Source: Candidatus Babelota bacterium (lineage in GTDB: Bacteria > Babelota > Babeliae > Babelales > UBA12411). From it: a stretch of 64,000 nucleotides of DNA. Made by a program: the position numbers and the translations under genes. The notes under the pieces were generated by a model. The model was not told the DNA's origin and did not search any database. It was given only the letters and a program-made list of their open reading frames with translations. The stretch lies in NCBI GenBank assembly GCA_003511165.1, contig DOJW01000004.1:68015-132014 (forward strand), in the 5' to 3' direction. Of this stretch, positions 10,617 to 30,035 are shown piece after piece (positions within the stretch are counted from its first letter, which is position 1; each line of letters opens with the position of its first letter).

Positions 10617-13400
10617 ATGAATAAAATAGTTATAAAATTTTTATTGTTATTTTGTTTTATTTCAACAACCATTTCAGGCGAACTATCAGTAACTTATATC
10701 AAAACTTTTCAAAATGTTTTTAAACCTGAAAACTCTGTCTTGCCTGCCGAAAGTAACCATTTATCACCAACATGGGGTGCTATCTTGTGGCACTCTCCTT
10801 TTTTAGAAAATCTTTACCGTTACGGAAACCAAAATCATGGAATGGTTAAACTGGCTCAAGAACTATTCTTTTTACATCACGATAATGTAACTTTCGATGC
10901 AACATATTTACCTACTAAAATTGCAAGTCACTTTGAGCCGCAAGACATTGGCATATTAATTGGAATTATCGAAAATCATAGAAGTAATCCTCAAATTTTA
11001 AAAACTGAATTAGACAGCTTTATTGTAGCTTTCGAATTAAATAACACTCTTAAAATTAAAGAAGGACTTAAACAATACTTTGATAATGCAATAAAAAAAA
11101 CCAAAAAAGAAATGTCTCTTGTTTTGGATAATGTTGAAAGTTTAATAGCTCAAGATGCAAAAATAACTAAGTTAAAAAGTGAATTAAAAGATCCAAATTT
11201 AAAAAAAAGATGGATTCAATCCAAAAAAGATCTCATTGCGAGAGAATCAAAGCTTCTAATAAAAAGTAAAATTGATCCCTTAAAAGTAAAAATCGGATTA
11301 TTAACTAAGTTAAAAAAGGATGAAGTCTCAAAACGTGATATAATTGCAGATCCTGCATATCAAAAATTCAAAACTTCTTTTATAGATTCTTTGATCAAAG
11401 CTATTCAAGAAGAAAATCACATATACCCTACTTACTTAACAACTTATATTTTACTGGCTTTGCATTGGAAAAAATCTAATCATCCTAACGATTTTATCGA
11501 TCTTCTCTGGGGTATTTATTCAACTTTGAATAATAAATCTATTTTATTTAATAACAACATTAATTCTAAATTGGGACAAACCTCTTTAACAAAAGAACAG
11601 TTTATTTCGATAATGCAACAAAATATGAATGCTCAAGGATTTGATCAAACAAAATATTTTAATCTTACAAAATCAATATCTCCTGATATTAACAATCTTG
11701 AAAATTTAGCTATCTCTTATTTGGGTTTTCATGTTTTTGAAAATCTTCTTCCTGATGCAGTTACTATGAGCTTAGCGACTCTTGTCCGAGAAACTGTTTT
11801 CCCTGATTGCGCCGAAACTTCTCTTTTAAACCTTTTTATTGCTCTAATTTTTGATCCTCAAACTAGAAATTTTGATACCTCTATTTTAGAACAAATCGGT
11901 GCAAAACAGCAGTTAATAGATTTTTTTAAAACTCATGACTTAAGTAATATTTATACCCAACAAGCTCATAATAGTCTGGCTCGTGTCGTTTCAAACCTTG
12001 AGGATGTTCAATATGCCTATAAGAAGTGCGAAATTGACGTTGGACTTAAAAATATGCTCCTTGTTATTCAACATTTAGTTGGTAAATTAGATGGAGAAAA
12101 TTCAAAAGCAAAATTAGAAAGTCTTAAAAATAAATTTACTCTAGATAAAGTAAAAATAACTGATATAGAACCTAATCAAGATCCAAATACTAATGACAAA
12201 AATCTTACTTTAAATATTACTATTCAAAAAAAAGCAACAGAATTAATTATTAAATGGATATTTTATCCTGAAGAATTTGTAATGGAATATCCTCCTAAAG
12301 CAGAAAATCTCTTTTCTCTAAAATCTTTTGATTTTTTTAAGTCACAAAAATTTACTACTAATCCTTATCAAGATTTAAAATTAGTCTTTTTCTTAAATTT
12401 ATTTGGAGGGTTAGATGGCCTAAAATTAGATGTACCTTTACTTTATAAATATTTTTCATATTTCATGCAAAATCTAAGAATACCTGAAAATACAATTAAA
12501 TTAGTAAAAATTTTAGTTAAAGACTCGAAAATTTCTGATGAAATTAAAATCAATCTTATTAGAAATATTTACAGTAAAATACCTAATGACGAATATTCTC
12601 AAAACGCCTTTTGGGATAACGTAGAATTTCATATTTTTAAAGTTTTTTATCCTTCTTTAGAGATTTTCAAAAATCTTACAGATACTTCCAAATGCAGTAT
12701 TATTTCCGCTCTATTAAAACAACCATTTAATCATTCTAATCCTGAAGTTTATAAGTGGATCAAAAATACGCTTCCTTCCAGTACACTTAAAGATGCTAAA
12801 GGTTCAATAATCAGAAATATTTTAGTAAAACCAATTCCACAAGATGCTGAGTTTAAATCAACTTTTATAAATTTTTATCAGTGGATCAAAGGTACTCTTC
12901 CTTATATTACAAATGACTATAAATTTGAAATAATCAAAATTATTTTAGCTAAACCAATTCCACAAGATCCTGAGTTTAATCCATTTTTTATAAATTTTTA
13001 TCAGTGGATTAAAGGCGCTCTTCCTACCGTTACAAATGACTATAATAAATTTGAAATAATCGGAAATATTTTAGCTAAACCAATTCCACAAGATCCTGAG
13101 TTTAATCCATTTTTTATAAATTTTTATCAGTGGATTAAAGACACTCTTCCTACTGTTACAGATGGCTATAATAAATTTGAAATAATCAAAATTATTTTAG
13201 CTAAACCAATTCCACAAGATCCTGAGTTTTACCCATTTTTTATAAATTTTTATCAGTGGATTAAAGGCGCTCTTCCTACAGTTACAAATGACTATATTAA
13301 ATTTGAAATACAAAAATTAATTTCGCAAAAACTTACAACCTTAACAAATCTACAATTCCAAGAAATTCAAAAAATTTTAGATGAAGCTTTAGCCCAATAA
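10617..13400 (+). CDS. Large secreted hypothetical protein with C-terminal 41-42-aa tandem repeats
   Basis: Signal-like N-terminus MNKIVIKFLLLFCFISTTISG and a GGGAGAG RBS. The C-terminus carries 4 full units plus 1 degenerate unit of IIKIILAKPIPQDPEFNPFFINFYQWIKGALPTVTNDYNKFE. No family is recognised for the first ~700 aa. Confidence 0.8.
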   Translation: MNKIVIKFLLLFCFISTTISGELSVTYIKTFQNVFKPENSVLPAESNHLSPTWGAILWHSPFLENLYRYGNQNHGMVKLAQELFFLHHDNVTFDATYLPTKIASHFEPQDIGILIGIIENHRSNPQILKTELDSFIVAFELNNTLKIKEGLKQYFDNAIKKTKKEMSLVLDNVESLIAQDAKITKLKSELKDPNLKKRWIQSKKDLIARESKLLIKSKIDPLKVKIGLLTKLKKDEVSKRDIIADPAYQKFKTSFIDSLIKAIQEENHIYPTYLTTYILLALHWKKSNHPNDFIDLLWGIYSTLNNKSILFNNNINSKLGQTSLTKEQFISIMQQNMNAQGFDQTKYFNLTKSISPDINNLENLAISYLGFHVFENLLPDAVTMSLATLVRETVFPDCAETSLLNLFIALIFDPQTRNFDTSILEQIGAKQQLIDFFKTHDLSNIYTQQAHNSLARVVSNLEDVQYAYKKCEIDVGLKNMLLVIQHLVGKLDGENSKAKLESLKNKFTLDKVKITDIEPNQDPNTNDKNLTLNITIQKKATELIIKWIFYPEEFVMEYPPKAENLFSLKSFDFFKSQKFTTNPYQDLKLVFFLNLFGGLDGLKLDVPLLYKYFSYFMQNLRIPENTIKLVKILVKDSKISDEIKINLIRNIYSKIPNDEYSQNAFWDNVEFHIFKVFYPSLEIFKNLTDTSKCSIISALLKQPFNHSNPEVYKWIKNTLPSSTLKDAKGSIIRNILVKPIPQDAEFKSTFINFYQWIKGTLPYITNDYKFEIIKIILAKPIPQDPEFNPFFINFYQWIKGALPTVTNDYNKFEIIGNILAKPIPQDPEFNPFFINFYQWIKDTLPTVTDGYNKFEIIKIILAKPIPQDPEFYPFFINFYQWIKGALPTVTNDYIKFEIQKLISQKLTTLTNLQFQEIQKILDEALAQ
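12700..13310 (+). repeat. In-frame tandem repeat, unit 123-126 bp, about 4.5 copies
   Basis: The core ccaattccacaagat(c/g)ctgagttta recurs at 12831, 12954, 13080 and 13206. Units are near-identical at the DNA level. Confidence 0.9.
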
Positions 13401-23883: not shown

Positions 23884-24684
23884 ATGTTTTTTTTCATTTT
23901 TTTAATTTTAATTTTTCTTTGTATTGGCTCTTTTATTAACATGCTCGCATTTCGAATCGCATTTGATAAATCAATCCTCAAAGCACGTTCATTTTGCCCT
24001 AATTGTGAAAATATAATCACTTGGTATGATAATATTCCTCTAATTTCTTGGATCTTTCTTAGAGGCAAGTGTCGTAACTGCAAAAAAAATATTTCTCCGC
24101 TTTACCCTTTCATCGAAGCTTTAACAACCACAGTTTTACTTTTAGTTTTTATAAAATTTTTTGGTATTTCATTATTTTTTGAATCTTCAAATTTTGTATT
24201 TGCAATTCAATCTATAAAATCATTTTTTGCATACTCTATATTTTTTGGAGCGCTAATCGCAGCAACAAGAACAGACCTTGAAGCGCTCATTATTCCACAA
24301 TGCTTCACCCTTTGGCTTGTACCTGTCGGATTTATTTTTTCATTTTTTAACTTTTTAGAAATATCTTTTTTAGAAAGTTTAATTGGAGCAACATCTGGAT
24401 ATTTAATTTTGTTTTTAACCGCAAAAATTTTCAAATTTTTCACAGGCAAAAATGGACTTGGAATAGGCGATGCAGAGATGCTTGCGCTTATAGGTTCATT
24501 TCTAGGAATTTTTGGAGTTTGGACTACTTTGATGATTAGTTCAACAATAGGACTCCTAATTGGCGTTTGTTATCTATTGTTTACAAAGCAAGGAAAAAAT
24601 ACACCAATTCCATTTGGTCCATTTCTTGCACTTGGTGCATTAATTCATTTTTTATTAGGTCAATATTTTAATTTTTTAATTTAA
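23884..24684 (+). CDS. pilD: Type IV prepilin leader peptidase / N-methyltransferase (A24 family)
   Basis: The Zn-finger CPNC..CRNC is followed by WYDNIPLISW. The catalytic Asp regions are GIGDAEMLALIGSFLG and PFGPFLALG. Confidence 0.85.
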   Translation: MFFFIFLILIFLCIGSFINMLAFRIAFDKSILKARSFCPNCENIITWYDNIPLISWIFLRGKCRNCKKNISPLYPFIEALTTTVLLLVFIKFFGISLFFESSNFVFAIQSIKSFFAYSIFFGALIAATRTDLEALIIPQCFTLWLVPVGFIFSFFNFLEISFLESLIGATSGYLILFLTAKIFKFFTGKNGLGIGDAEMLALIGSFLGIFGVWTTLMISSTIGLLIGVCYLLFTKQGKNTPIPFGPFLALGALIHFLLGQYFNFLI

Positions 24685-24703: not shown

Positions 24704-25405
24704 ATGAAAAAAATATCATTATTATTTAGCTTATTTACATTAACAATCGCTAGTCAAATTCATTGCGTTGGAGATTTTTATACAATATCAGAGAATGATG
24801 GAAGCCCTACAAATCGCATGTGTTACATAAACCCTGATAATCCAAATACTTTAGTAGAATTTAAAGATTTATGTTTAGAAATATATGAATCTACTTTTTT
24901 TGAACCAACACTAAGGATTTCACGTCTCCCTCACACTAACTATACAACAGCACAAAAAATAAGTATTGATTTAGAACAATTTTTAAGCGTTGAACATGCA
25001 CGCACAAACTATGGAAATTTGAACATATTAGAAGAAATTGCCTTTGTTAACAACCCAGATACCACCCCTAAATCAAGGCCAATAAACGTTACTCACCAAA
25101 TTAACAATGTTGAATTAAGAAATGGTAATTCTATACTGTTAGTTACTCTTTCACCAATCGCGCAAGAAAGGGCCTCAATTTTATTAATATTTGAAAAACA
25201 TCCAGTAGATCAATTTTTTTATTTAGAAAAACAAATAAACATTCTAAATGATGAAGCAACAATTCAAGGTGTAAACTTCTTAACTGATCAAAATATTTTG
25301 AGAATTGCTTGTAAGATCAGGGAACAAAGCTACCATTTTAATATTCCAATGTTTTTTCCTAAAACATTAGATCTTCAAGATATCCCATTATCAGATGATG
25401 TATAA
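24704..25405 (+). CDS. Hypothetical secreted protein
   Basis: Signal-like MKKISLLFSLFTLTIASQIHC and an AAGGAAA RBS. No recognisable motif. Confidence 0.55.
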   Translation: MKKISLLFSLFTLTIASQIHCVGDFYTISENDGSPTNRMCYINPDNPNTLVEFKDLCLEIYESTFFEPTLRISRLPHTNYTTAQKISIDLEQFLSVEHARTNYGNLNILEEIAFVNNPDTTPKSRPINVTHQINNVELRNGNSILLVTLSPIAQERASILLIFEKHPVDQFFYLEKQINILNDEATIQGVNFLTDQNILRIACKIREQSYHFNIPMFFPKTLDLQDIPLSDDV

Positions 25406-26668: not shown

Positions 26669-26745
<77 letters not shown>

Positions 26746-27140: not shown

Positions 27141-27259
27141 AAATACATCAAAAACACCCAATTTCGGCACCCCCCCTGTTGCAATTATAATTTATTAAGC
27201 TATGATTGTTTATACTATAAATTCAATTAGCGTATAAATATAAAGAAATGGAGTTATTT

Positions 27260-29674
27260 ATGAAAAATATGTCAAAAATCGTTAAATTCGCATTGCTTGG
27301 ATCTGTTTTGATTGCAACTTTTAGTAAGGCAATCACAATTACATTTACAAAAGTTGGTCCTGATAGACATCTTGTAAGGGAACAACATACAATTGATGAT
27401 CGTTATAAACCATTCTTTTATTTTGATGAAGCTCCCTTCTCTTTCGAACAATTTTCAAAAGCTACTTTTATTTTAGATACACTAATTCAAATTGAAGAAG
27501 CAAAAAAAGAATTACACATCTTCGAAAACATGCTGCAACACGCAACTTCTTTGATAGCAATTGATCGCGCGCAAATCAAAAGGAAAAATGACGCAGAAAA
27601 AGGAATTAAAACAAAAAATGAACAAATACAAACCTTACAAAATCAAATAAAAGGAGATATTTCAAGACGATCTCCAGATGATTTAAAAGATCTCAGGTTA
27701 ATTACTCAAGCTTTGAAACTTAAGAACCTCGAGGAATTTACAGCTCAACATTTTATTCAGAACAAATCAATTTCTATAAAAACTTCTGATGATCAGATCA
27801 TTACATTAAAGTTAGAACTTTTAACATGTTCTAAAATGATTAACAGTATGTTAGATGCTTCTAATTTGACAATAAACTCTGACCCTATTCTTCTACCTGA
27901 AATAACATCTGAGCAATGGAGACTAATTGAACTTTTATTACCAAACGTCAAAATAATAAATGATCCTGAATCTACAAAAGAAGAAATAGAAACTGCCCGA
28001 ACAGAACTAACTGCAAAAATTATGAGCTATTCATTACAGCAACAAAGGCAACTTTTACTTGCTGTTAACTTCTTAGATATTCCACAAATACTTAATGAAA
28101 CAATTAAACAAATAAGTAACTCTACAGAATTAATTGAAAGTTTTAGACAAAATCCCGAATCTTTTATTGAATCTGAAGAATTCAATACTGCAACAAATTT
28201 TTTACCACATGATTTATTGAAGCAACTTACAAAAAATTCTAATTTTTGCTGCTTCCTTAACGATTTAGAAATAGCGGGACATACTATCAAATGTGTTAAA
28301 TTTAATAACGGTGTAATTGTTGCTCAATTAGAAGATAATACTTACAGATATTGGACTATTAATCCTGACAATAGCCTACAACCTCTAGAAATAGCGGGAC
28401 ATACTATTATAGAAGCTACATCTTCTAACGGTGTAATTGTTGCTACATTAAACGATAATACTTACAGAATTTTGACTATTAATCCTGACAATAGCCTACA
28501 ACCTTTAGAAATAGCAGGACATACTATTGAATTTGCTTCAGCTTCTAACGGTGTAATTTTTACTAGATTAGAAGATAATACTTACAAAATTTTGACTATT
28601 AATCCTGACAAGAGTTTATCTAGTCCTCAACCTTTAGAAATAGAGGGACATACTATTCAATATGCTTCAGCTTCTAACGGTCTAATTATTGCTAAATTAG
28701 AAGATAATACTTACAAAATTTTGACTATAAATCCTAACAAGAGTTTATCTAGTCCTCAACCTTTAGAAATAGAGGGACATACTATTAGAAAAGCTACATC
28801 TACTAACGGTGTAATTGTTGCTAAATTAGAAGATAATACCTATAGATATTGGACTATAAATACTGACAATAGTTTATCTAGTCCTCAACCTTTAGAAATA
28901 GAGGGACATACTATTCAATATGCTTCAGCTGAAAATGGTGTAATTGTTGCTAAATTAGACGATAATACTGACAGAGTTTGGGTTATAAATCCTGACAATG
29001 ACCTACAACCTTTAGAAATAGCGGGACATACTTTTCTATATGCTAATATTTATGACGGTGTAATGACGGTTCGATTAGAAGATAATGCTAACAGAGTTTG
29101 GGTTATAAATCCTGACAAAAGCCTACAACCTCTAGAAATAGCGGGACATACTATTATAGATGCTTCAGCTTCTAACGGTGTAATTGTTGCTACATTAGAC
29201 GATTTTACTTACAGAATTTTGACTATTAATCCTGACAATAGCCTACAACCTTTAGAAATAGCGGGACATACTATTACAAAAGCTTCAGCTTCTAACGGTG
29301 TAATTACTGCTAAATTAGAAGATAATACTTACAAAATTTTGACTATAAATCCTGACAAGAGTTTATCTAGTCCTCAACCTTTAGAAATAGCAGGACATAC
29401 TATTACAAAAGCTTCAGCTTCTAACGGTGTAATTTTTACTAGATTAGAAGATAATACTTACAGAGTTTTTATACCTAAAAGAATAACCCTCCAACAAGCA
29501 CTATTTATTAATGCTTGCAAAGAACGACCTATAAATTTAGATTCTGAACCAAAATTTAAAAGTATTTTTGACTCTCTTCCGGCAGAGTTAAAACAAAAAC
29601 TTAAAGCAGAAGGCTTTGTTTCTGAATCAATTCCTGGACAAATTTCTAGATCAATCGAAATTTCAGGCGAATAA
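27260..29674 (+). CDS. Secreted protein with Skp1/BTB-POZ-like domain and ten WD40-like tandem repeats
   Basis: Signal-like MKNMSKIVKFALLGSVLIATFSKA; the ATG at 27260 is preceded by GGAG, with an alternative ATG at 27248. Residues ~174-290 (nt ~27767-28117) read ISIKTSDDQIITLKLELLTCSKMINSMLD..DPILLPEITSEQWRLIELLL..LLLAVNFLDIPQILNETIKQI, following the Skp1/BTB pattern. Then come 10 units of LQPLEIAGHTIxxASASNGVIVAKLEDNTYRILTINPDNS (GH...D.T.R.W, WD40-like). Confidence 0.8.
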   Translation: MKNMSKIVKFALLGSVLIATFSKAITITFTKVGPDRHLVREQHTIDDRYKPFFYFDEAPFSFEQFSKATFILDTLIQIEEAKKELHIFENMLQHATSLIAIDRAQIKRKNDAEKGIKTKNEQIQTLQNQIKGDISRRSPDDLKDLRLITQALKLKNLEEFTAQHFIQNKSISIKTSDDQIITLKLELLTCSKMINSMLDASNLTINSDPILLPEITSEQWRLIELLLPNVKIINDPESTKEEIETARTELTAKIMSYSLQQQRQLLLAVNFLDIPQILNETIKQISNSTELIESFRQNPESFIESEEFNTATNFLPHDLLKQLTKNSNFCCFLNDLEIAGHTIKCVKFNNGVIVAQLEDNTYRYWTINPDNSLQPLEIAGHTIIEATSSNGVIVATLNDNTYRILTINPDNSLQPLEIAGHTIEFASASNGVIFTRLEDNTYKILTINPDKSLSSPQPLEIEGHTIQYASASNGLIIAKLEDNTYKILTINPNKSLSSPQPLEIEGHTIRKATSTNGVIVAKLEDNTYRYWTINTDNSLSSPQPLEIEGHTIQYASAENGVIVAKLDDNTDRVWVINPDNDLQPLEIAGHTFLYANIYDGVMTVRLEDNANRVWVINPDKSLQPLEIAGHTIIDASASNGVIVATLDDFTYRILTINPDNSLQPLEIAGHTITKASASNGVITAKLEDNTYKILTINPDKSLSSPQPLEIAGHTITKASASNGVIFTRLEDNTYRVFIPKRITLQQALFINACKERPINLDSEPKFKSIFDSLPAELKQKLKAEGFVSESIPGQISRSIEISGE
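28257..29470 (+). repeat. In-frame tandem repeat, 10 units of 120 or 129 bp
   Basis: The core (t/c)tagaaatag(c/a)gggacatact recurs at 28265, 28385, 28505, 28634, 28763, 28892, 29012, 29132, 29252 and 29381. Spacings are 120, 120, 129, 129, 129, 120, 120, 120 and 129. The 129-bp units carry an extra SLSSP-coding insert. Confidence 0.95.
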
Positions 29675-29734: not shown

Positions 29735-29778
29735 AACAGTAAAAAGGGGCGATTTAAACATCGCCCCTTTTTACTGTT
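29735..29778 (+). terminator. Strong rho-independent terminator
   Basis: A 19-bp perfect stem aacagtaaaaaggggcgat / atcgcccctttttactgtt with a 6-nt loop. The T-run lies within and after the 3' arm. Confidence 0.85.
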
Positions 29779-29822: not shown

Positions 29823-29897
29823 GCGGGAATAGCTCAGTGGTAGAGCATTGCCTTCCCAAGGCAAGGGCCGCGGGTTCAACCCCCGTTTCCCGCTCCA
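29823..29897 (+). tRNA. tRNA-Gly (CCC)
   Basis: The 75-nt cloverleaf gcgggaa..ttgcc-ttCCCaa-ggcaa..gcggg-ttcaacc-cccgt-ttcccgc-t-cca. Confidence 0.95.
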
Positions 29898-29906
29898 AAA
29901 TTTTGT

Positions 29907-29935
29907 TTGACAACCGGATCTTTTAAAGATAAATT
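29907..29935 (+). promoter_or_regulatory. Sigma70-type promoter for the second tRNA-Gly
   Basis: TTGACA (29907-29912), a 17-nt spacer, then TAAATT (29930-29935), about 25 nt upstream of the tRNA 5' end. Confidence 0.45.
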
Positions 29936-29960
29936 TGGGACATCTTCTTTGAATTTTTAT

Positions 29961-30035
29961 GCGGGAATAGCTCAGTGGTAGAGCATTGCCTTGCCAAGGC
30001 AAGGGTCGCGGGTTCAAATCCCGTTTCCCGCTCCA
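29961..30035 (+). tRNA. tRNA-Gly (GCC)
   Basis: A 75-nt cloverleaf that differs from the CCC copy only at anticodon position 34, one variable-loop base and two T-loop bases. Confidence 0.95.

Follow-up and report, generated by a model that had tools for sequence, protein, structure and literature searches.

A bacterial protein from Candidatus Dependentiae predicted to join a Skp1-type POZ domain to WD40-type repeats

Imitation of the substrate receptor is a well-known way in which intracellular bacteria and viruses hijack the cullin-RING ubiquitin ligases of their hosts, bacterial examples being F-box, U-box/RING and BTB–LRR (leucine-rich repeat) proteins (PMC7542358, PMC4209131, PMC1257465). 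The gene described here lies in a 64,000-nucleotide stretch of contig DOJW01000004.1 (positions 68,015 to 132,014, forward strand; assembly GCA_003511165.1, Candidatus Babelota bacterium), hereafter the window, and its product appears to combine the building blocks of the Skp1/F-box–WD40 receptor module of the SCF (Skp1–Cul1–F-box) ligases. A sequence-only reading of the same DNA had proposed a secreted protein joining a Skp1/BTB-POZ-like fold to a ten-unit WD40-like array. In the case of the bacterial F-box effectors (Legionella AnkB/LegU1, Ralstonia GALA, Agrobacterium VirF, and one in Babela massiliensis), the presumed target is likewise the SCF, approached by a foreign receptor logic (PMC4378268, PMC7542358). 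However, these effectors mimic the F-box protein and need the host Skp1, whereas the window protein would mimic Skp1 and bypass both the host Skp1 and the host F-box protein. The BTB–LRR proteins of the Parachlamydiaceae (PEX1 family, Protochlamydia; PMC4209131, PMC1257465) share with the window family the union of a POZ domain with repeats, an amoeba-associated bacterium as the source, lineage-specific paralogs, and a proposed feeding of cullins. Their POZ domain is a Cul3-type BTB domain followed by LRRs, they are type III secretion system substrates, and they have dozens of members; the window family, from another phylum, instead has a Skp1-type domain, WD40 repeats, a signal peptide for export, and about four paralogs. 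The Parachlamydiaceae proteins have been described as the sole prokaryotic POZ-domain proteins, and Skp1 as an essentially single-domain protein (PMC1257465). BTB–BACK–Kelch adaptors of Cul3 also place a POZ domain, a helical connector, and a β-propeller in a single chain, but their POZ domain is a BTB and not a Skp1-type domain, their propeller is Kelch and not WD40, and another cullin is expected. POZ plus WD40 architectures exist in Mimiviridae as well, where the Mimivirus fusions use BTB, not Skp1-type domains, and we know of no viral Skp1 fused to an FBXW-type propeller. In a limited literature search (PMC7542358, PMC4209131, PMC1257465, PMC4378268, PMC6561590, PMC4776705), no bacterial imitation of Skp1 and no Skp1–propeller fusion was found reported.

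Both building blocks of the Skp1/F-box–WD40 modules (Skp1–Fbw7, Skp1–β-TrCP1, and Skp1–Cdc4; 2ovp, 1p22, and 3mks) are found in the window protein, but there are several differences. The window protein is one chain and not two, and neither an F-box nor the helical linker domain that joins F-box and propeller is detectable. Its blades are ten and nearly identical, compared with seven or eight diverged blades in the known modules, and the W-D pair is mostly replaced by L/W-T. It further adds a signal peptide, a coiled-coil-like insertion, and a helical C-terminal domain, and it keeps the PxPN motif of Skp1 in part. From the N-terminus, the order is a signal-peptide-like segment, a helical insertion, the Skp1-family POZ domain, a linker, ten repeats, and the helical C-terminal domain (Table 1; residues are numbered in the 808-aa frame that opens at 27248, and the number in the 804-aa protein is lower by 4). 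We assign this Skp1-POZ plus WD40-repeat architecture with high confidence, and, judged from its sequence, the protein is best described as a single-chain Skp1 plus FBXW-like receptor without a detectable F-box. The domain identity is solid, the architecture unusual, and the function hypothetical. The features that the sequence-only reading described are confirmed and go well beyond chance, and its interpretation is partly supported.

The POZ domain was compared with Skp1 by sequence, by profile, and by predicted fold. In the Pfam scan, Skp1_POZ (PF03931; gathering score 21.9 bits) scores 19.2 bits on the whole window protein and 21.7 bits on the isolated domain. In paralogs that are 48–62% identical in the domain, it scores 23.6 (P0005), 35.5 (P0015), and 38.1 bits (P0006), a match already present in precomputed Pfam annotations, and it gives no match in paralog P0003. 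A phmmer search of the PDB with the window domain returns Skp1 for all of the top 23 matches, Skp1 residues 3–127 being aligned end to end. The profile of four paralogs retrieves 28 Skp1 sequences from the PDB at E 2.7e-7 to 2e-3, those of human, Arabidopsis, and Dictyostelium among them at 2.7e-7 to 1e-4, and Elongin C at E 0.14, with no BTB, KCTD, or T1 protein among its PDB matches. Profile–profile alignment with hhalign gives human SKP1 a probability of 92.7% (E 4.3e-7) and Elongin C 18%; as far as residue 127, the SKP1 reference sequence is consistent with the alignments to PDB chains. The AlphaFold2 model of aa 164–341, built with the family alignment, reaches a pLDDT (predicted local distance difference test) of 79.5 and a pTM (predicted template modelling score) of 0.75, with the element order E-E-H-H-E-H-H-H-H-H-H…H. 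Its predicted POZ core carries the Skp1-specific extra helix after helix 3, together with helices at the α7/α8 position. With this model, the top 50 Foldseek matches in the PDB are all Skp1 chains (target TM, or template modelling score, 0.57–0.76), 1fs1_B superposing with a root-mean-square deviation of 3.3 Å over 132 columns, and the AnkB–Skp1 structure 5k35 is among the matches. In BFVD, the best matches are Skp1 homologs of giant viruses (E 3.5e-5), namely the Skp1-fold proteins of protist parasites such as Pandoravirus, Solumvirus, Cedratvirus, and Bodo saltans virus, and a Mimivirus WD40 family protein stands in row 32 of the same list; no sequence relatives of the window family are found in IMG/VR. 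The helix-5 motif of Skp1 is well preserved, as LLLAVNFLDI, and the identity, about 20–28%, is too low to tell a host from a virus origin of the domain.

The Skp1-like stretch that the sequence-only reading placed at nt ~27767–28117 is borne out, the HMMER alignment pairing the same residues with human Skp1. The profile likeness and the POZ α/β core that it anticipated agree with the hhalign result for SKP1, with the predicted core, and with a top 50 made up of Skp1 only. Among the Pfam families it had named, PF03931 comes close to the gathering score in the window domain and exceeds it in three paralogs, but PF01466 and PF00651 give no match. The same reading likened the protein to BTB-Kelch and BTB-WD40 adaptors, and this half of the analogy is not supported by the search results. 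A Cul3-type adaptor, in which the POZ domain dimerises and binds the host Cul3, would be in keeping with the POZ superfamily fold, with the giant-virus BTB/POZ proteins that stand lower in the BFVD list, and with the BTB–LRR effectors that exist in Parachlamydiaceae (PMC4209131). However, Pfam BTB (PF00651) has no match at E<=10 in the window protein and the paralogs, no Cul3-type BTB chain (BTB-Kelch, SPOP, KCTD, BTB-ZF) occurs among the PDB sequence matches, and the top structural matches are all Skp1. The N-terminal dimerisation elements of the BTB-ZF/BBK type are not seen in the secondary structure of the model, and the Skp1-specific helices are present. By sequence and model, the domain is of the Skp1 type and not a Cul3-type BTB, and a Cul3 adaptor is very improbable.

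Along the repeat array, sequence and model indicate WD40 blades that are closest to those of F-box/WD40 proteins. Tandem Repeats Finder resolves a period of 120/129 nt with 9.8 copies, 82% matches, and a score of 1267, the last unit degenerating after DNTYRVF. GH and the structural Asp at unit position 24 are kept in 10/10 units and D-N-T in 8/10. The "WD" position holds W in four units, L in five, and F in one, followed by T/V/I instead of D, and after GH the unit is about 2 residues shorter than in Fbw7/Tako8. In the phmmer search of the PDB, the repeats match the designed propellers Tako8 (E 3.6e-21, in register over eight units) and Ika8 (2.1e-11), and the sole natural proteins matched are FBXW1A (β-TrCP1), FBXW11, and FBXW7 at E 8e-7 to 8e-6. 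Tako8 itself is a consensus/ancestral reconstruction of the Fbw7 blades from the Skp1–Fbw7 structure 2ovp (PMC6327176). The repeats of paralog P0015 present the same picture in the PDB, and Skp1 is matched in the same search. Against 5.8 billion proteins, the family profile reaches canonical multi-WD40 proteins at E 4.5e-21 and 1.7e-8, and P0004 gives a match at 4.3e-8 in the test for likeness to bona fide WD40 proteins. The full-length AlphaFold model predicts four strands per unit in all ten units, with pLDDT mostly 60–88, and Foldseek with this model retrieves β-propellers only, headed by Tako8, Fbw7, Cdc4, and β-TrCP at E ~1e-13.

Pfam WD40 (PF00400) has no match in the window protein and reaches 13 bits, against a cutoff of 27, in P0002, so the repeats are regarded as atypical, compact units. 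The Beta-prop_THOC3, WDHD1, and WDR5 models likewise stay far below their cutoffs on the window protein and paralogs, and the unit profile aligned by hhalign with canonical WD40 units gives a probability of 47% over 21 columns only. The ten units of 40/43 residues described by the sequence-only reading stand in their number, in their length, and in their GH, but the final W of its D-x-T-x-R-x-W element is present in just 4/10. Its choice of propeller-type blades over a solenoid agrees with the predicted four-strand units and the propeller-only Foldseek matches. The ten blades may close into one ring. Other Pfam matches to the window protein (DNA_ligase_OB, DUF4469, Integrase_p58_C, Filo_VP24, T2SSS_2, and Baculo_FP_2nd) were rejected as artefacts: none of them covers its profile, and most lack any stretch that would pass by itself. 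DNA_ligase_OB, for which the cutoff is 32.9 bits, attains 43.5 bits although none of its individual stretches does so. These scores arise because a weak match of 15–40 residues is summed over ten repeats. Near-identical repeats in such number can thereby inflate unrelated Pfam families, which calls for caution in automatic annotation.

The differences between the blades are not evenly distributed. Nine codons are DNA-identical across all ten units, and variability, measured as amino-acid entropy, is greatest at unit positions 9 and 10 (2.7 and 2.4 bits), lesser peaks lying at 12–14, 19, and 21. Codon-pair differences between units comprise 499 non-synonymous and 83 synonymous ones. The Nei–Gojobori (NG86) estimate gives a mean non-synonymous rate (dN) of 0.222, a mean synonymous rate (dS) of 0.126, a ratio of 1.77, and dN>dS in 34/36 unit pairs. 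This is a crude estimate, drawn from 36 codons and from pairs that are not independent of each other, in repeats that gene conversion can affect, but it agrees with a ligand-binding face undergoing diversification. For the P0003-type paralog array, dN/dS is 0.71. In the Tako8 alignment, unit position 9 corresponds to the residue that follows the conserved strand A Val. This position we take to be that of the degron-binding Arg465/Arg505 of FBXW7, and position 23 that of Arg479, a mapping presumed from the FBXW7 sequence. Blade differences at the predicted ligand face, together with a varying blade number, suggest a fast evolution of target specificity.

The number of repeats varies at the same loci. 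Ten units make up the array of the window gene, against three in a MEGAHIT contig (L002 6001-7539; P0001, 512 aa), where unit 3 is fused to unit 10 within their 52-nt exact match, the longest exact stretch shared in the array, and the three-unit form is either a real deletion or an assembly collapse. At the P0003 locus (P0002/P0003; L004 4001-6001), the array has 9 units, or 10 with one unit exactly duplicated. Some of these differences in repeat number may be assembly errors. Two further products, P0010 (341 aa) and P0009 (331 aa), were rejected as genuine versions; they are assembly breaks with frame-shifted junk where the repeats begin.

Between the POZ domain and the array, the family-specific linker spans the place of the Skp1 helices α7/α8 in the fold comparison, where Foldseek alignments extend up to 178 columns. 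The last residues of the linker, FCCFLNDLE, look like the final part of a repeat unit and could provide a strand that closes the ring. No member of the Pfam F-box clan matches between the N-terminus and the WD40 region. A possible F-box remnant in the linker (invariant F-L-P-x-(D/E)-L) was considered and rejected: the hhalign comparison of the linker profile with five F-boxes gives a probability of 0.6%, and the likeness is a 5-residue LPxxL match alone. At the C-terminus, helices are predicted by AlphaFold at 748–759, 768–775, and 779–787, and the Pfam scan finds no match for this domain.

At the N-terminus, inspection of MKNMSKIVKFALLGSVLIATFSKA reveals three Lys residues, a hydrophobic core of 12 residues, and a cleavage site made up of small residues (S-K-A), with no lipobox Cys, in keeping with the signal-like N-terminus of the sequence-only reading. 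Eleven positions of the signal peptide are invariant across four paralogs (MK(N/K)(M/I)(S/L)KI(V/I)KF(A/T)LLG), compared with 33–43% identity in the mature parts. Paralogs that recently swapped their 5' ends could account for this conservation, as could specialisation of the signal for export. The following insertion of about 144 aa is specific to the window gene, being missing in P0003, P0005, and P0015, and has no match in the Pfam scan. AlphaFold assigns it the helices H66-140 and H143-171 at a pLDDT of 30–44. The stretch had earlier been read as coiled-coil-looking, and two long helices are indeed predicted at aa 66–171, a low-confidence result that is in keeping with a coiled coil but no proof of one.

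The window gene belongs to a small family. An exhaustive HMMER search with the POZ-plus-linker profile against 1.84 billion representatives yields 4 true matches, and relatives in other organisms are absent from the GTDB species representatives, IMG/VR, and the JGI metagenome scans, in which only genes of the same organism appear. A further product of the search, P0007, is a YHS-domain repeat protein in which only an FKKNPDKF-like motif is matched, and was set aside as a false positive. P0002, P0005, and P0006 were rejected as orthologs of different lineages: in the cluster look-up, the assemblies share identical MnmE and GroEL proteins, which makes the three sequences paralogs within a single organism or population. 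By sequence comparison, the window gene has at least three paralogs, all in one organism or population. The common plan consists of a signal peptide, a POZ domain, a linker, repeats, and the C-terminal helical domain. The P0003 locus adjoins an ATP/ADP translocase gene and a Fic gene, the P0015 locus adjoins rpmH, and the contexts of the paralogs are unrelated to the slot of the window gene. In P0015 (L005 6001-7818), the C-terminus VPILIGGTLGLGLAGYYLWSKSKKR is a hydrophobic stretch followed by basic residues, resembling a tail anchor, which the window protein does not have. Downstream of P0015 lie an IS200-type Y1 transposase and then a 335-aa protein that weakly matches an RCC1-like propeller.

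The gene is bacterial and intact and comes from Candidatus Dependentiae, as is evident from its syntenic bacterial flanks, its matching G+C content, its own Shine–Dalgarno sequence and hairpin, and the occurrence of the same protein on 5 contigs. The window is an ordinary bacterial chromosome of about 31% G+C, the gene equals its flanks in G+C, and there is no composition break at the gene. The MnmE, GroEL, and MnmA proteins of the window are identical to those of Candidatus Dependentiae bacterium/candidate division TM6 bacterium GW2011_GWE2_31_21. An uninterrupted open reading frame (ORF) of 808 aa runs on the + strand from 27248 to 29674. By sequence, the ATG at 27260 is the real start and the product has 804 aa, because GGAG lies 6 nt upstream, the homologs all begin with MKNMSKI, and the 804-aa product stands verbatim in NCBI; the start given by the sequence-only reading is the same. 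In the cluster look-up, this product occurs as HBS47994.1 and HBZ73402.1 on 5 contigs from several sources. That the gene might be an assembly artefact, contaminant eukaryotic DNA, or a decaying pseudogene is suggested by the error-prone nature of repeat arrays and by the 512-, 341-, and 331-aa products of other assemblies of the locus. However, the intact 804-aa frame is identical on contigs of several sources, G+C and flanks are bacterial and syntenic, the units are only 82% DNA-identical with a longest exact share of 52 nt, and the gene has a bacterial Shine–Dalgarno sequence and a signal peptide, which leaves this explanation hardly credible.

Dependentiae are obligate parasites or symbionts of protists, and their eukaryote-like repeat proteins with signal peptides and their ubiquitin-system proteins (F-box, RING, and deubiquitinases) are held to be secreted effectors (PMC4378268, PMC6561590). 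The Sec pathway and a type II-like secretion system, present as type II components, are among the core genes of the phylum (PMC4776705). In the mechanism proposed here, the protein would be exported via Sec and this type II-like system. The mature protein would be a one-chain imitation of the two-chain Skp1/F-box–WD40 receptor module of the SCF (Cul1-RING) ligase, the family-specific helical linker replacing the F-box between the Skp1-type POZ domain and the FBXW-type ring of blades. The Skp1-like domain would dock on the N-terminal domain of the host protist Cul1. The top face of the propeller would present selected host proteins so that they are ubiquitinated and degraded, or would simply hold them. 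We infer the secretion into the host, the binding of Cul1, and the ubiquitination of targets from the domain composition and the lineage. The protein is thus a candidate effector that probably hijacks or blocks a host SCF ubiquitin ligase, and its being an SCF/Cul1-directed effector is, in our estimate, evenly balanced between true and false.

A number of observations weigh against this proposal, beginning with the part of Skp1 that is not recognised. The likeness to Skp1 ends at residue ~125–127, the Pfam Skp1 C-terminal domain PF01466 has no match in the window protein or the paralogs, and hhalign of the linker with the Skp1 C-terminus gives 0.2%, so the F-box-binding helices α7/α8 are without a sequence counterpart. 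The PxPN motif on strand 3 of Skp1 contacts Cul1 (PMC1257465), and at this site, PLPN in Skp1, the window protein has LLPE, P0005 TLPN, and P0015 SLTN, the motif being lost in P0003. The full-length AlphaFold model is poor (pLDDT 60, pTM 0.42) and superposes loosely on real propellers (TM 0.15–0.35 in Foldseek), which makes ring geometry and blade count tentative. In addition, 3, 9, and 10 repeats at the same loci would be odd for a closed propeller, and the crudeness of the dN/dS estimate weakens the case for a diversification of targets. In terms of location, a Sec signal peptide alone delivers a protein to the periplasm, and we know of no route into the host cytosol for Dependentiae. Furthermore, P0015 carries a hydrophobic anchor at its C-terminus in addition to the signal peptide, and in a bacterium such a combination normally marks a periplasmic protein tethered to the inner membrane.

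Some of these observations would fit a protein that has no part in ubiquitination. Its POZ domain would be a packing or oligomerisation module, comparable to T1/KCTD and to non-SCF Skp1 complexes, and its propeller would bind a ligand of the host surface, an organelle, or the bacterial envelope. The protein itself would remain periplasmic, sit on the cell surface, or be carried in outer-membrane vesicles. The Sec signal peptide as the sole targeting signal, the transmembrane-like anchor of P0015, the degraded PxPN motif for Cul1, and a variation in repeat number that resembles the behaviour of surface proteins are all in keeping with it, as are the β-propellers with a signal peptide, such as BamB, that are common in bacterial envelopes. 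Nevertheless, the Skp1-type domain co-occurs with a propeller most like those of Skp1's own F-box/WD40 partners, and this pairing is difficult to account for unless the protein descends from, or mimics, the SCF receptor module. The lineage, moreover, is one of obligate parasites rich in mimics of the ubiquitin system (PMC4378268), and we hold the non-ubiquitin explanation to be unlikely.

The same domain evidence would also suit a decoy or inhibitor of the SCF, in which the Skp1-like domain ties up the Cul1 of the host, or titrates away its F-box proteins, and substrates are not productively delivered. SCF-dependent turnover, for example of cell-cycle or defence regulators, would then be shut down, and the propeller would serve as bulk, for localisation, or as a competitive sink for degrons. 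The fold comparison does reach the F-box-binding helix region, with up to 178 aligned columns, and an FBXW-like top face could sequester phosphodegrons. However, the sequence of α7/α8 is not conserved, and a decoy has no obvious need for ten blades diversifying at the ligand face, nor for four paralogs; it appears a decidedly unlikely explanation. Returning to the Cul1-directed receptor, a bolder version holds that the family is a self-contained, F-box-free SCF receptor. It would be diversified in the manner of an immune receptor: the ligand-face residues of its near-identical blades would be under positive selection, the number of blades would be changed by recombination, and its paralogs, including a membrane-anchored one, would dock on Cul1 without the host Skp1 and degrade changing sets of host proteins. 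We regard this version as possible but doubtful. If it is true, bacterial effectors would have their first Skp1 mimic, and the family would be a "programmable degrader" made by nature.

Should Cul1 be bound, the F-box would be dispensable for an SCF receptor, and the protein would offer structural biology a compact one-chain Skp1–receptor scaffold. It would likewise open a way to study host manipulation by the Dependentiae, a phylum on which hardly any work exists, including how Sec-exported proteins get into the host cytosol. Should no cullin be bound, the family would still be a case of eukaryotic SCF parts re-used by a bacterium for another purpose. Near-perfect WD40 repeats of variable number with a hypervariable ligand face form a natural counterpart of the designed symmetric propellers Tako and Ika, and a case for the study of propeller evolution.

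Table 1. Features of the window gene and of its paralogs (positions in the window).
Feature	Position	Strand	Description
Complete coding sequence	27260..29674	+	804 aa + stop; Skp1-POZ/WD40-repeat protein; NCBI HBS47994.1, "hypothetical protein", Candidatus Dependentiae bacterium
Sec-type signal-peptide-like N-terminus	27260..27331	+	aa 5-28; MKNMSKIVKFALLGSVLIATFSKA; read by inspection
Insertion	27332..27763	+	~144 aa, aa 29-172; short β hairpin, then two long predicted helices, coiled-coil-like
Skp1-family POZ domain	27764..28117	+	aa 173-290; aligns with human Skp1 residues 3-125
Family-specific helical linker	28118..28264	+	aa 291-339; invariant F-x-Q-N-P-x-x-F and F-L-P
Ten tandem WD40-type repeats	28265..29470	+	aa 340-741; six of 40 aa, four of 43 aa
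Conserved C-terminal three-helix domain	29471..29671	+	aa 742-808; TLQQALFINACKERPINLDSEPKFKSIFDSL; kept in P0003 and P0015
Candidate sigma-70-like promoters	27164-27191 and 27179-27206	+	consensus scan, 10/12 and 9/12 matches; consensus likeness alone
Shine–Dalgarno GGAG	27250-27253	+	6 nt before ATG 27260
G+C-containing hairpin	29735..29778	.	19-bp stem; 60 nt past stop codon; scored on minus strand, stem palindromic
Paralog P0003			DEO28_01985; 624 aa; nine repeats; 666-aa ten-repeat variant at same locus
Paralog P0015			DEO28_01300; 605 aa; transmembrane-like end; on 18 contigs
Paralog P0005			fragment cut at contig end

Around the gene, the upstream neighbours are rpsU, rbfA, a SIS/CBS protein, a prepilin peptidase (window 23884-24684), mnmA, and a tRNA-Met, and the downstream neighbours are two tRNA-Gly genes, a Jag-like protein, mnmE, and groES/groEL. 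Other genes of the window include polA, topA, acs, nrdD, and that of a P-type ATPase. The hairpin past the stop codon is, by its sequence, a probable terminator, presumably acting on the + strand. With the tRNA-Gly pair (CCC, GCC) at 29823-30035 and the tRNA-Met upstream, the gene occupies a tRNA-flanked slot between mnmA and jag/mnmE.

Two ORFs of the window are without a Pfam match, namely a 927-aa frame at 10617-13400 (+), which has none even at E 0.01 and is the largest unannotatable gene of the window, and a 233-aa frame at 24704-25405. The intergenic DNA that separates the gene from the tRNA-Met (26669-26745) contains a 35-nt inverted repeat (26924-26958/27057-27091), its arms 94% complementary and 98 nt apart, which occurs once in the window. 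It sits inside a weaker 22-nt inverted repeat (26876-26897/27119-27140). The nested repeats may be an element resembling a miniature inverted-repeat transposable element, an insertion scar beside the tRNA gene, or a hairpin that regulates the gene from its upstream side.

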